Below, piece by piece: positions 5,908-56,479 of a stretch of 64,000 nt of DNA; position 1 is the first letter of the stretch; each line of letters opens with the position of its first letter. The notes beneath the pieces are model-generated. The model ran no database searches. It saw only the letters and a program-made list of their open reading frames with translations, and was not told where the DNA came from. A program made the position numbers and the translations under genes. Source of the DNA: Escherichia coli. GTDB lineage: Bacteria > Pseudomonadota > Gammaproteobacteria > Enterobacterales > Enterobacteriaceae. The stretch lies in the NCBI RefSeq assembly GCF_001677475.2, contig NZ_CP015229.1. One strand, written 5' to 3'.

Positions 5908-6786
5908 ATGTTTGATTTTGCTTCTTACCATCGCGCAGCAACCCTTGCCGATGCCATCAACCTGCTGGCTGACAACCCGCAGGCCAAACTGCTCGCCGGT
6001 GGCACTGACGTACTGATTCAGCTCCACCATCACAATGACCGTTATCGCCATATTGTTGATATTCATAATCTGGCGGAGCTGCGGGGAATTACGCTGGCGG
6101 AAGATGGCTCGCTACGTATCGGCTCTGCAACGACATTTACCCAGCTAATAGAAGATCCTATAACTCAACGTCATCTCCCGGCGTTATGTGCTGCGGCCTC
6201 ATCCATTGCCGGACCGCAGATCCGTAACGTCGCTACCTACGGTGGAAATATTTGCAACGGTGCCACCAGCGCAGATTCTGCCACGCCAACGCTAATTTAT
6301 GACGCAAAGCTGGAGATCCACTCCCCACGCGGTGTTCGTTTCGTCCCGATTAATGGCTTTCACACTGGGCCAGGCAAAGTGTCTCTTGAGCATGACGAAA
6401 TCCTTGTCGCCTTTCATTTTCCGCCCCAGCCGAAAGAACACGTGGGCAGCGCGCATTTTAAATATGCCATGCGCGACGCAATGGATATTTCAACGATTGG
6501 CTGTGCCGCACATTGCCGACTGGATAACGGCAATTTCAGCGAATTACGCCTGGCATTTGGTGTTGCCGCGCCAACGCCGATTCGCTGCCAACATGCCGAA
6601 CAGACTGCACAAAATGCGCCATTAAACCTGCAAACGCTGGAAGCTATCAGCGAATCTGTCCTGCAAGATGTCGCCCCGCGTTCTTCATGGCGGGCCAGTA
6701 AAGAGTTTCGTCTGCATCTCATCCAGACGATGACCAAAAAAGTGATTAGCGAAGCCGTCGCCGCGGCGGGGGGAAAATTGCAATGA
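5908..6786 (+). CDS. xdhB: xanthine dehydrogenase, FAD-binding subunit
   Basis: 292 aa with a CO dehydrogenase flavoprotein-like FAD-binding fold ([12 protein letters not shown]); immediately downstream of xdhA. Confidence 0.9.
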
Positions 6787-7262
6787 ATCACAGCGAAACA
6801 ATTACCATCGAATGCACCATTAACGGGATACCTTTTCTGCTTCACGCCGCACCAGGCACGCCACTCTCGGAATTACTCCGCGAACAAGGACTGCTAAGTG
6901 TCAAACAAGGGTGCTGCGTGGGTGAATGTGGTGCCTGTACGGTGCTGGTCGACGGCACAGCAATAGACAGTTGCTTATACCTTGCCGCCTGGGCTGAAGG
7001 AAAAGAGATCCGCACGCTTGAAGGTGAAGCGAAAGGCGGAAAACTTTCTCATGTTCAGCAGGCTTATGCGAAATCCGGCGCAGTGCAGTGCGGGTTTTGT
7101 ACGCCTGGCCTGATTATGGCTACCACGGCAATGCTGGCGAAACCACGCGAGAAGCCATTAACCATTACGGAAATTCGTCGCGGACTGGCGGGAAATCTTT
7201 GTCGCTGCACGGGGTATCAGATGATTGTAAATACAGTTCTGGATTGCGAGAAAACGAAGTAA
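6783..7262 (+). CDS. xdhC: xanthine dehydrogenase, 2Fe-2S iron-sulfur subunit
   Basis: 159 aa with 2Fe-2S cysteine motifs ([11 protein letters not shown]; CGFCTPG; CRCTGY); start overlaps the xdhB stop (ATGA). Confidence 0.9.
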
Positions 7263-7270
7263 AAGGATAT

Positions 7271-7290
7271 CCGGCCTGAATTCAGGCCGG
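7271..7290. terminator. perfect 20-bp palindrome CCGGCCTGAATTCAGGCCGG between convergent xdhC and ygeV
   Basis: Inverted repeat read directly; a T-run follows on the minus strand, fitting a ygeV terminator. Confidence 0.55.
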
Positions 7291-7301
7291 ATTCACTGAG
7301 G

Positions 7302-54010: not shown

Positions 54011-54040
54011 TCCCGGCGAAAAAACCGGGAGATGAAAGTG
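54011..54040 (-). terminator. rho-independent terminator downstream of ubiI: TCTCCCGG-ttttttcg-CCGGGAGA then TTTT (minus strand)
   Basis: Hairpin plus T-tract on the minus strand, about 40 nt after the ubiI stop. Confidence 0.6.
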
Positions 54041-54075
54041 TGATGGGTATCAAATAAACAACAGAGGAAAAATTT

Positions 54076-55278
54076 TTAACGCAGCCATTCAGGCAAATCG
54101 TTTAATCCCATTGCCTGGCGGATAAGTTGCGGCTTAACGCCAGGAAGCGTGTCGGCCAGTTTCAAACCAATATCACGCAGCAGTTTTTTCGCCGGATTGG
54201 TACCGGAAAACAGATCGCGGAATCCCTGCATACCAGCCAGCATCAGCGCCGCACTGTGCTTGCGGCTACGCTCATAGCGACGCAGATAAATGTACTGCCC
54301 GATGTCTTTCCCCTGACGATGCAACCGTTTCAGTTCAGCAATCAGCTCTGCAGCATCCATAAAGCCGAGATTTACCCCCTGCCCCGCCAGCGGGTGAATG
54401 GTATGCGCGGCGTCGCCCACCAGCGCCAGACGATGCGCGGCAAACTGGCGCGCATAACGCCCCGTCAGTGGGAACACCTGACGCGCGCTCTCAACCTTGC
54501 ATAAGCCAAGGCGATTATCAAAAGCGATATTTAACGCGCGATTAAATTCGTCTTCACTTGCCTGCTGCATCCGCTGCGCTTCCTCTGGCGACAGTGACCA
54601 GACAATCGAGCAAAGATGCGGATCGCTAAGCGGTAAAAAGGCCAGAATGCCTTCGCCATGGAAAACCTGCCGCGCCACCGCATCATGCGGTTCTTCCGTG
54701 CGAATGGTCGCTACCAGCGCGTGATGCTGATAATCCCAGAAAGTCAGCGGAATATCGGCTTTGTTGCGCAACCAGGAATTAGCGCCGTCCGCGCCAATCA
54801 CCAGGCGCGCCGTTAACATGCTGCCATCTTTCAGCGTCAGGAAGGTTTCGTTTTCTCCCCAGGCGACCTGCTGTAATTCTGCGGGGGCCAACAGAGTGAT
54901 ATCTGACGACTGATGCGCTTTGTTCCACAGCGCGTAGTGAATCACTGAGTTTTCAACGATATGCCCAAGATGGCTATAGCCCATGCTTTGATCGTCAAAC
55001 GAAATGTGACCAAAACTGTCTTTGTCCCACACTTCCATGCCGTGATAGCAGCTGGCCCTACGAGCGAGAATGTCCTGCCAGACGCCAAGACGGGTGAGTA
55101 ATTTTTCGCTGGCGGCATTGATAGCCGAAACGCGCAGTTGTGGTGGTGCATCCGCCGCCAGAGGTTCCGGTACGCGCTGCTCCAGTACGGCAACGCGTAA
55201 GCCGCTACCCTGTAAGCCGCAGGCAACCGCCAGCCCCACCATGCCGCCGCCAACAATGGCTACATCAACACTTTGCAT
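54076..55278 (-). CDS. ubiI: FAD-dependent 2-octaprenylphenol hydroxylase
   Basis: 400 aa; N-terminal FAD fold VAIVGGGMVGLAVA. Confidence 0.9.
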   Translation of the reverse strand: MQSVDVAIVGGGMVGLAVACGLQGSGLRVAVLEQRVPEPLAADAPPQLRVSAINAASEKLLTRLGVWQDILARRASCYHGMEVWDKDSFGHISFDDQSMGYSHLGHIVENSVIHYALWNKAHQSSDITLLAPAELQQVAWGENETFLTLKDGSMLTARLVIGADGANSWLRNKADIPLTFWDYQHHALVATIRTEEPHDAVARQVFHGEGILAFLPLSDPHLCSIVWSLSPEEAQRMQQASEDEFNRALNIAFDNRLGLCKVESARQVFPLTGRYARQFAAHRLALVGDAAHTIHPLAGQGVNLGFMDAAELIAELKRLHRQGKDIGQYIYLRRYERSRKHSAALMLAGMQGFRDLFSGTNPAKKLLRDIGLKLADTLPGVKPQLIRQAMGLNDLPEWLR

Positions 55279-55300
55279 TGTTTATTCCTTAAAACCGCCT

Positions 55301-56479
55301 TCAACGCGCCACCCAACCGAGGGTGCGCTGCGCCAGCACATCGCGTGCCGGGGTGAATAATTCCATCGTCATCAGCCCGATGTTGCGCCCGACAACCAGC
55401 GGCGTCCAACGGTTGGCAAAAAGATGTACAAGGCTGTCCGTGACGCCAATGGTTGCTTCGCGATCGCTCTGTCGACGCTGCTGATAACGACACAATACGC
55501 CGTAATCACCCATGTCTTCTCCGCGCTCCTGCGCCTGAGTCAGGGTTTCCGCAAGACTCATGACATCTCGCATACCGAGGTTGAATCCTTGCCCGGCAAT
55601 TGGGTGCAGAGTTTGCGCCGCATTGCCCACCAGCACGGTACGATGGGTAATAGGTCTGGCGGCGCGGGTTAACGCCAGCGGATAAGCACTGCGTTTACCT
55701 GCGTGGGTAATTTTCCCAAGTCGCCAACCAAAGGCCGACTGGAGTTCACGGCAAAACTTCTCATCACTCCACGACAGCACCTCTTCGCGCCGTTCCAGTG
55801 GATGACACCAGACCAGCGAACAGCGTCCGTCAGACATCGGCAACATCGCCAGCGGGCCATGTTGTGTAAAGCGTTCAAAAGCGCGCCCTTCATGCGCAAC
55901 GGAAGTCGCAACGTTGGCAATCACAGCCAGTTGTTCGTAAGGCTCCTGCTGCCAGTCAACGCCGCACGCGGTGGCTAACGCTGAATGGGTGCCATCAGCG
56001 GCTACCAGCACGCGGCCCGTCAGCGTCTCGCCACTCTCCAGCGTCACTTCAACGTGACTCTGAGTACGGGCAACGTTAGCCACGCGATCCGGGCAATGCA
56101 GCGTTACGCCAGGTGCTTTTCGCAGCAATGCAAACAGCCGTTGCCCGACATTATGCAATTCGACAACCTGCCCCAGCGCCGCCAGTTGGTAATCTTCTGC
56201 GGCGAGGGTGACGAATCCGGCATGACCACGATCGCTGACATGCACGGTAGTGATGGCGGTTGCGCAATCAGCCAAAGATTGCCAGACGCCGATGCGCGCC
56301 AGTTGCTGACAGGTACCCGCCGCCAGCGCAATAGCTCGTCCATCAAAGCCCGGATGAGCATGTGACTCTGGTGCGGTCGCCTCAATTAAATGAACCGGCA
56401 GCGCCCCGTGACTTAACCGGGAAATAGCCAGCGCCAGCGTCGCGCCCGCCATGCCGCCACCGACGATGATTACGCTCAT
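55301..56479 (-). CDS. ubiH: FAD-dependent 2-octaprenyl-6-methoxyphenol hydroxylase
   Basis: 392 aa; N-terminus MSVIIVGGGMAGATLA. Confidence 0.9.
   Translation of the reverse strand: MSVIIVGGGMAGATLALAISRLSHGALPVHLIEATAPESHAHPGFDGRAIALAAGTCQQLARIGVWQSLADCATAITTVHVSDRGHAGFVTLAAEDYQLAALGQVVELHNVGQRLFALLRKAPGVTLHCPDRVANVARTQSHVEVTLESGETLTGRVLVAADGTHSALATACGVDWQQEPYEQLAVIANVATSVAHEGRAFERFTQHGPLAMLPMSDGRCSLVWCHPLERREEVLSWSDEKFCRELQSAFGWRLGKITHAGKRSAYPLALTRAARPITHRTVLVGNAAQTLHPIAGQGFNLGMRDVMSLAETLTQAQERGEDMGDYGVLCRYQQRRQSDREATIGVTDSLVHLFANRWTPLVVGRNIGLMTMELFTPARDVLAQRTLGWVAR

Follow-up and report, generated by a model that had tools for sequence, protein, structure and literature searches.

What do overlapping stop and start codons tell us about the genes that share them? 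The question is raised by the window analysed here, the whole stretch of 64,000 nucleotides of Escherichia coli DNA running from ygeQ to argP on the chromosome, in which an original prediction had read several such overlaps as signs of translational coupling. Very probably we are dealing with the usual kind of junction found within operons of E. coli (here xdhABC, ygfK-ssnA-ygfM-xdhD, ygfTS, sdhE-ygfX and ygfB-pepP-ubiHI), with the downstream start on the upstream stop or slightly ahead of it, so that translation of the downstream gene would depend in part on that of the upstream gene.

Short junctions are as frequent in the window as in the genome

Spacings of -8 to +6 nt were found at 7 of the 31 co-directional gene pairs in the window (23%), compared with 24% genome-wide (707/2,987), the latter being a published count for this range of spacings and not an exact tally of -4 junctions. 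With 7.3 pairs expected from this E. coli baseline (P(X>=7) = 0.63), the window is not enriched for short junctions, and their frequency is typical of E. coli. If spacings were naively taken as uniform, finding exactly -4 at three of the 31 co-directional pairs would be unlikely (P about 1e-4). Overlapping pairs made up 5/31 in the window, against about 15% among operon pairs. The overlaps at these pairs are already known, pair by pair, as all five are tabulated with matching distances, ygfT/ygfS as -1, by Huber et al. 2023 (Suppl. Table 2). In E. coli, as in most prokaryotes, co-directional genes are most often spaced by a short start/stop overlap, and its significance here is small.

Overlaps at the hydroxylase gene pairs

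Two of the overlaps join subunit genes of molybdenum hydroxylases, with the following features:

5908-6786, plus strand: xdhB (ORF)
6783-7262, plus strand: xdhC (ORF)
6783..6786, plus strand: xdhB stop and xdhC start, ATGA, -4 overlap (sequence, ORFs, K-12 transfer, identical RefSeq layout)
6766..6774, plus strand: Shine-Dalgarno-like GCGGGGGGA within xdhB, 8 nt 5' of the xdhC ATG (anti-SD duplex -9.4 kcal/mol)
23655-24434, plus strand: ygfM (ORF)
24431-27301, plus strand: xdhD (ORF)
24431..24434, plus strand: ygfM stop and xdhD start, ATGA, -4 overlap (sequence, ORFs)
24417..24424, plus strand: strong Shine-Dalgarno GGGGAGGA within ygfM (Gly-Glu-Glu codons), 6 nt 5' of the xdhD ATG (duplex -11.2 kcal/mol)

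Sequence and open reading frames agreed at both junctions, and the ATGA overlaps that had been predicted at xdhB/xdhC and ygfM/xdhD were thus confirmed. The -4 overlap of ygfM and xdhD was kept in 16/16 intact non-E. coli enterobacterial loci, plus one truncated E. coli locus; locus L024, on a contig labelled Flavobacterium, was left out of this count, being E. coli-like with many frameshifts. Among the enterobacterial loci sharing the overlap the C-terminus of YgfM varies, and the purine-rich GGAG/GAGG motif before xdhD is maintained in related loci. Conservation of ATGA may merely mirror separate constraint on the stop and on the start. As a separate observation, expression of xdh, ygfM/xdhD and ygfTS is low in standard culture; the cluster is induced anaerobically by urate or purines.

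Overlaps on the minus strand

The other three overlapping pairs lie on the opposite strand:

56476-57801, minus strand: pepP (ORF)
55301-56479, minus strand: ubiH (ORF)
56476..56479, minus strand: pepP stop and ubiH start, ATGA, -4 overlap (sequence, TCAT on the plus strand; ORFs)
32124..32130, minus strand: ygfT/ygfS junction, GTGATGA (sequence, annotation)
43917-44183, minus strand: sdhE (ORF)
43529-43936, minus strand: ygfX/cptA, GTG start (ORF)
43917..43936, minus strand: sdhE/ygfX (cptA) overlap, 20 nt (ORF coordinates, Pfam)

At pepP/ubiH the ATGA stood as predicted, TCAT being ATGA on the minus strand with the open reading frames in agreement, and the predicted 20-bp overlap of sdhE and cptA is likewise real. 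The ATGA overlap claimed for ygfT/ygfS at 32127-32130 did not hold: the bases are TCAC, i.e. GTGA on the minus strand. Translation of ygfT ends at the first TGA (32129..32127), a second in-frame TGA comes directly after it, and in both K-12 RefSeq and PGAP ygfS begins at the ATG at 32127..32125, giving a 1-nt TGATG overlap. An alternative in-frame GTG lies one codon upstream of this ATG (32130..32128), and the 4-nt overlap holds only if this GTG is the real ygfS start.

The two adjacent ygfS starts, with their choice of a 4-nt or an annotated 1-nt overlap, and a RefSeq protein record that has reached version 4 and so has been revised several times, are what speaks for a reading in which some overlaps are annotation artefacts arising from wrongly called starts. 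Either ygfS start, however, leaves the junction compatible with coupling. For xdhC, xdhD and ubiH the open reading frame offers no start earlier than the overlapping ATG, and conserved domains begin about 12 residues into XdhC and 73 into XdhD, which argues that these overlaps are not products of start calling. The GTG start of ygfX is supported by the Pfam Cpta_toxin profile, whose position 1 aligns at YgfX residue 2. We consider such artefacts very improbable. A mis-called start was ruled out for xdhC, xdhD and ubiH by the first-in-ORF ATG, and for ygfX by the profile alignment.

Plausible translational coupling at the overlapping junctions

Coupling at the -4 and -1 junctions of the window is a standard, reasonable and, on their geometry, plausible reading. 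Four pairs, at -4 or -1, fall within the range of efficient reinitiation (about -8 to +10 nt), and their junctions are of the NTGA or TRATG type (ATGA at xdhB/xdhC, ygfM/xdhD and pepP/ubiH; TGATG as annotated, or GTGA, at ygfT/ygfS). Such overlaps leave no space between the genes for a terminator or a promoter, and the 3' part of ygfM showed no sigma-70-like site. A ribosome ending the upstream gene would reinitiate at the neighbouring start, or unfold that start, and downstream translation would then partly follow upstream translation, to a degree varying gene by gene. The classical pairs trpE/trpD and trpB/trpA, in an operon for enzyme subunits, likewise have a stop codon that overlaps the next start; coupling there has reportedly been demonstrated genetically, whereas at the pairs of the window we only infer it.

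The closest likeness is to the pairs of Huber et al. 2019, 2023 (hyfHI, astDB, ydbH/ynbE, menDH and bioBF), which have an NTGA or -1 TGATG overlap with a Shine-Dalgarno sequence in the upstream coding sequence; those pairs were tested by experiment, whereas those of the window are known from sequence geometry, and sdhE/ygfX lies at -20. In premature-stop tests on native E. coli -4 pairs, coupling was seen in 4/5, three being strictly coupled, menDH to about 60% and bioBF not at all (Huber et al.), and coupling collapses beyond a spacing of about 20-38 nt.

Initiation signals differed among the overlapped genes. As the Shine-Dalgarno sequences internal to xdhB and ygfM are strong, independent initiation is probably also possible at xdhC and xdhD, whereas those of ubiH (-3.0 kcal/mol), ygfS (AAGG, -3.3 kcal/mol) and ygfX are weak (-3.0 to -4.3 kcal/mol across the three), so heavier reliance on the upstream ribosome is probable for these genes. 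In predicted folding of the window's genes, the energy needed to open the initiation region was 12.3 kcal/mol for the five overlapped starts compared with 9.4 kcal/mol (one-sided P = 0.019, n = 5), an exploratory result suggestive of overlapped starts being slightly less accessible.

A rival reading takes the overlaps as neutral. An ATG needs only one more base to become ATGA, and overlaps could be by-products of compaction or mutational ease, with each downstream gene initiating independently from its own Shine-Dalgarno sequence and no coupling. The strong signals at xdhC and xdhD would allow these genes to be initiated entirely on their own; there is no coupling at bioBF, and about 40% of initiation at menDH is de novo; and genome-wide, translation-efficiency ratios are about as variable between overlapping as between non-overlapping pairs. 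We nevertheless regard this explanation as unlikely, with strict coupling in 3/5 of the tested E. coli -4 pairs, efficient independent initiation improbable from the very weak signals of ubiH, ygfS and ygfX, and the geometry of ygfM/xdhD and ygfK/ssnA kept across genera.

Knock-outs of or insertions in xdhB, ygfM, ygfT, pepP or sdhE are likely to disturb the next gene as well. Such an effect is documented for pepP, where a published IS1 insertion was polar on ubiH; it is evidence of co-transcription or polarity and not of translational coupling in particular.

Overlaps and stoichiometric complexes

The original prediction went further and took the overlaps as support for stoichiometric complexes of the hydroxylase subunits. 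This stood only in part. Short spacing is a modest statistical predictor, since 30.4% of E. coli pairs spaced -8 to +10 nt encode subunits of a complex compared with 6.8% of distant pairs; the window itself supplies counter-examples in pepP/ubiH, sdhE/ygfX and xdhA/xdhB. PepP/UbiH was scored as a non-complex despite its 4-nt overlap (Huber et al. 2023), and xdhA and xdhB, which encode subunits of one enzyme, are +10 nt apart.

Published ribosome profiling gives translation efficiencies of 1.58 for sdhE and 0.11 for ygfX, a 14-fold difference at equal mRNA (161 and 138; Burkhardt 2017), in tables that cover pepP, ygfB, sdhE and ygfX, with ubiH, ygfTS and the xdh/ygf hydroxylase genes outside them. 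Co-transcription of sdhE and ygfX has been reported. At -20, this junction is neither of the NTGA/TRATG short-overlap type nor within the -8 to +10 coupling range of Huber et al., and a back-step of 20 nt would be expected to give poor reinitiation, in line with the low measured translation of ygfX. Overlaps fix no 1:1 output and, alone, predict complex formation weakly.

For the hydroxylase complexes themselves there is good support from evidence independent of the overlaps, namely complementary domains, solved homologues and a co-purification. Pfam assigned FAD_binding_5 and CO_deh_flav_C to XdhB, Fer2 and Fer2_2 (two [2Fe-2S] domains) to XdhC, FAD_binding_5 to YgfM, and Fer2_2 ([2Fe-2S]), Ald_Xan_dh_C and the molybdenum cofactor domains MoCoBD_1/2 to XdhD, so that the FAD, [2Fe-2S] and molybdenum cofactor modules of a molybdenum hydroxylase were found spread over co-encoded proteins. 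PDB homologues of the subunits belong to solved heteromeric enzymes. In published work a protein of about 30 kDa, taken to be YgfM only putatively, was recovered together with tagged XdhD, and modelling gave a resemblance to R. capsulatus XDH. For XdhABC, homology suggests that the subunits associate.

A known paralogous operon of E. coli is paoABC (yagTSR), which encodes the periplasmic aldehyde oxidoreductase. This enzyme is a solved heterotrimer (PDB 5G5G) made up of FeS, FAD and Mo subunits and is likewise a molybdenum hydroxylase. The two paoABC junctions are both at -4, as at xdhB/xdhC and ygfM/xdhD but unlike xdhA/xdhB, and PaoA is matched by XdhC (E = 2e-24). Gene order is FeS-FAD-Mo in paoABC, whereas it is Mo-FAD-FeS in xdhABC, and at ygfM/xdhD, unlike in paoABC, a single fused protein carries both the FeS and the Mo module. 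Across the family, the CutS to CutB spacing had a median of -4 (q1 -4, q3 -1, n=477) and the CutB to CoxL spacing a median of -3.4 (n=403).

The strong form of the predicted link would have the overlaps specifically selected to force equimolar subunit synthesis in obligate complexes. In keeping with it are the 4.5-fold enrichment of complex subunits among short-distance E. coli pairs, the complementary hydroxylase modules of XdhB/XdhC and YgfM/XdhD, the co-purification of putative YgfM with XdhD, and the -4 spacing at both junctions of the solved PaoABC heterotrimer. About 70% of short-distance pairs, however, do not encode complexes; PepP and UbiH have no known complex, the XdhA and XdhB genes stand apart, overlapping sdhE and ygfX differ widely in translation efficiency, and in Photobacterium ygfM and xdhD are neighbours with a +2 gap, a GAGGAGG Shine-Dalgarno sequence and no overlap. 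On balance selection for equimolar output seems rather doubtful, and we keep to ordinary operon junctions with partial dependence on upstream translation.

The ygfK/ssnA junction and the uric-acid operon

A further junction, absent from the list of the original prediction, is compatible with coupling:

22271..22278, plus strand: ygfK stop TAA, 2-nt gap, ssnA ATG, with a GGAGG Shine-Dalgarno sequence 5 nt upstream (sequence)

Its +2 gap was kept in 14/14 intact related loci having both genes. A 50-nt spacer separates ygfK-ssnA from ygfM-xdhD and contains a hairpin that covaries across genera. We tentatively suggest that ygfK-ssnA-ygfM-xdhD may be organised as two tight translational modules and, separately, that the -20 overlap of sdhE and ygfX could set an output of about 1:15, a ratio that would come from inefficient backward reinitiation. 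Each module matches a protein pair that works together, YgfK and SsnA being active solely when assayed together, and YgfM and XdhD appearing to form a complex. In re-engineering of the uric-acid pathway, these junctions should be kept or deliberately substituted.

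Gene models and overlaps in the window

Gene models were obtained by placing K-12 proteins by tblastn, with start and stop codons then checked in window coordinates. All K-12 proteins gave full-length matches (96.7-100% identity), and the K-12 gene order was kept across the window from ygeQ/actS to argP. Of the five overlaps named in the original prediction, the list was largely correct, with one junction (ygfT/ygfS) mis-described; the ATGA bases of three were found where they had been placed, and the 20-nt sdhE/cptA overlap was confirmed from gene coordinates.

Overlapping gene pairs in the window, with the basis of each assignment
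6783-6786, plus strand: xdhB/xdhC, ATGA (sequence and ORF check)
24431-24434, plus strand: ygfM/xdhD, ATGA (sequence and ORF check)
56476-56479, minus strand: pepP/ubiH, ATGA (TCAT as read on the plus strand; sequence and ORF check)
43917-44183 (sdhE) and 43529-43936 (ygfX, cptA), minus strand: 20-nt overlap (coordinates of transferred genes)
32127-32130, minus strand: ygfT/ygfS, TCAC, which is GTGA on the minus strand, within GTGATGA (32124-32130)

As the downstream ATG of xdhC, xdhD and ubiH is the earliest start codon available in each ORF, and conserved domains begin ~12 residues into XdhC and ~73 into XdhD, the three ATGA overlaps are robust. Position 1 of the Cpta_toxin profile aligns at YgfX residue 2, in support of GTG as the ygfX start codon. 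For ygfT/ygfS, ATGA had been claimed where the minus-strand bases are GTGA. Within GTGATGA, the first TGA terminates ygfT and is directly followed by a second in-frame TGA, and ygfS has two neighbouring in-frame candidate starts, GTG then ATG. K-12 RefSeq and PGAP use the ATG, giving a 1-nt overlap (-1 in Huber et al. 2023), and the GTG, one codon 5' and in frame, would if used restore the predicted 4-nt overlap; both starts are compatible with the sequence.

Several further features of this strain were observed. Each third of the window showed ~98% identity to essentially every complete E. coli genome, the top match among 5,426 being just ~98% identical per third, and the source is probably a lineage thinly represented among complete genomes. 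At 437-2047 (minus strand) the gene for a 536-aa glycoside hydrolase of family 15 is intact, whereas K-12 keeps only a 264-aa ygeQ remnant beside IS2 and the ygeP pseudogene. The first ATG of the xdhA ORF lies at 3600 (plus strand), 39 nt 5' of position 3639, where K-12 annotation begins the gene (span 3600-3641), and the annotation of the closest genome, strain N3, treats xdhA as a pseudogene with a frameshift. The small-protein genes yqfG (plus) and yqfH (minus) overlap convergently by 4 nt at ~36054-36057 per K-12 annotation, with imperfect coordinate transfer for yqfH. The ygfF-gcvP intergenic region (48999-49041, plus strand) matches the ES036 (CssrF) sRNA family at Rfam gathering level, the remaining Rfam matches (6S RNA, SibC, tRNA-Gly) all being expected.

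Frequency of close junctions

Spacings between upstream stop and downstream start fell within -8 to +6 nt in 7 of the 31 co-directional neighbour pairs (23%): xdhB/xdhC, ygfM/xdhD and pepP/ubiH (-4 each), ygfT/ygfS (-1), uacT/yqfG (+1), ygfK/ssnA (+2) and dsbC/recJ (+5). Genome-wide, 707 of 2,987 E. coli pairs (24%) lie in this range, with -4 the commonest single spacing, and at that rate 7.3 close pairs would be expected in the window (P(X>=7) = 0.63). Overlapping pairs (5/31) were in line with the reported ~15% of operon pairs, and the overlaps singled out as recurrent therefore represent the genome's normal condition. A naive uniform spacing model placed three exact -4 junctions among 31 pairs beyond chance (P about 1e-4), and was judged the wrong comparison. 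Huber et al. 2023 (Supplementary Table 2) name all five overlapping pairs, scoring xdhB/xdhC (-4) as a complex and ygfM/xdhD (-4), ygfT/ygfS (-1), sdhE/ygfX (-20) and pepP/ubiH (-4) as not a complex. The overlap observations are nothing new, and their interpretation is conventional and only partly supported.

Proposed translational coupling

Coupling is the best-supported reading of the junctions: a ribosome ending the upstream gene would reinitiate and/or open the downstream start region by unfolding it. Among native E. coli -4 pairs given premature stops, three were strictly coupled, menDH was coupled at ~60% and bioBF was uncoupled, and a spacing of +38 nt lowered coupling by 80-100%. Shine-Dalgarno (SD) pairing with the anti-SD was strong for xdhC (GCGGGGGGA, 8 nt spacing, -9.4 kcal/mol) and xdhD (GGGGAGGA, 6 nt, -11.2 kcal/mol), which may mix coupling and independent initiation, and poor for ubiH (-3.0), ygfS (-3.3) and ygfX (-4.3 kcal/mol); strong dependence on the upstream ribosome would be expected of ubiH and ygfS from their weak SDs. 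The predicted opening energy of the -18 to +12 region averaged 12.3 kcal/mol at the five overlapped starts versus 9.4 (one-sided Mann-Whitney P = 0.019, n = 5), a difference only suggestive of initiation sites embedded in coding sequence. According to a review, coupling becomes less efficient with longer overlaps, between -4 and -25 nt, and the values for sdhE and ygfX fit this (mRNA similar at 161 versus 138, ribosome density 254 versus 15, translation efficiency 1.58 versus 0.11). An IS1 insertion in pepP strongly reduced ubiH expression and gave a ubiH-like phenotype, which shows that pepP and ubiH form one expression unit, although the polarity could be transcriptional as well as translational. 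Coupling at the five junctions is therefore inferred rather than observed.

Conservation of the junctions

A YgfM scan with one genome per species gave 20 loci, 19 of them usable after one frameshift-riddled contig was dropped. The ygfM/xdhD ATGA overlap was present in 18/18 of the enterobacterial loci (18 of the 19), comprising 16 intact non-E. coli loci (other Escherichia species, Citrobacter, Kluyvera, Klebsiella indica, Atlantibacter, Trabulsiella, Pluralibacter), one in which ygfM is truncated and a further, truncated locus from E. coli, despite variable final YgfM residues and YgfM identity down to 72%. Two Photobacterium loci read TAA-CC-ATG (+2 nt) with the SD GAGGAGG. As stop and start are each needed individually, an ATGA junction resists change, and its conservation is therefore no proof of selection for coupling. 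The ygfK/ssnA junction (22271-22278), absent from the original prediction, reads TAA TC ATG with a GGAGG SD within ygfK, and gap and SD were kept in 14/14 intact loci with both genes; YgfK and SsnA activity is reported only in a joint assay. Published COG-pair tables agree with short spacing family-wide (median -4 for CutS to CutB, q1 -4, q3 -1, n = 477; -3.4 for CutB to CoxL, n = 403; +1 for PepP to UbiH, q1 -4, q3 18, n = 237), and the paralogous E. coli operon paoABC has -4 at both its junctions.

Overlap and hydroxylase complexes

The overlaps had also been taken to support stoichiometric hydroxylase complexes. This evidence is real but weak: complex formation among E. coli pairs rises from ~7% to ~30% with overlap, but pepP/ubiH and sdhE/ygfX are counter-examples within the window, xdhA/xdhB are true subunits at +10 nt, and the genome-wide translation-efficiency ratio is about equally spread in overlapping and non-overlapping pairs. 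The complexes are well supported by other evidence. Pfam places FAD_binding_5 in XdhB and YgfM, both [2Fe-2S] domains in XdhC, and in XdhD a [2Fe-2S] domain fused to molybdenum cofactor domains; XdhC matches the small subunit in heteromeric enzymes of solved structure (4zoh, 1t3q, 3hrd, 1n5w, 5g5g), and YgfM, more distantly, their FAD subunits. In a 2025 study a ~30 kDa protein, putatively YgfM, co-purified with affinity-purified XdhD, the preparation reduced urate to 2,8-dioxopurine with NADH, and the model resembled R. capsulatus XDH; the scoring of ygfM/xdhD by Huber et al. as not a complex looks outdated.

Upstream of this pair, the 50-nt ssnA-ygfM spacer (23605-23654) holds a GC-rich hairpin (23614-23638; ACCCTCTTCC-CGTA-GGAAGAGGGT) right after the ssnA stop, without a T-run on the plus strand and terminator-like when scored on the minus strand. 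Its stem is held by compensatory changes in Citrobacter, Klebsiella indica, Atlantibacter, Trabulsiella and Pluralibacter, with one or more sequences differing at both positions of each of the 9 predicted stem pairs, and the hairpin may act as an intercistronic stabiliser, processing site or partial terminator.
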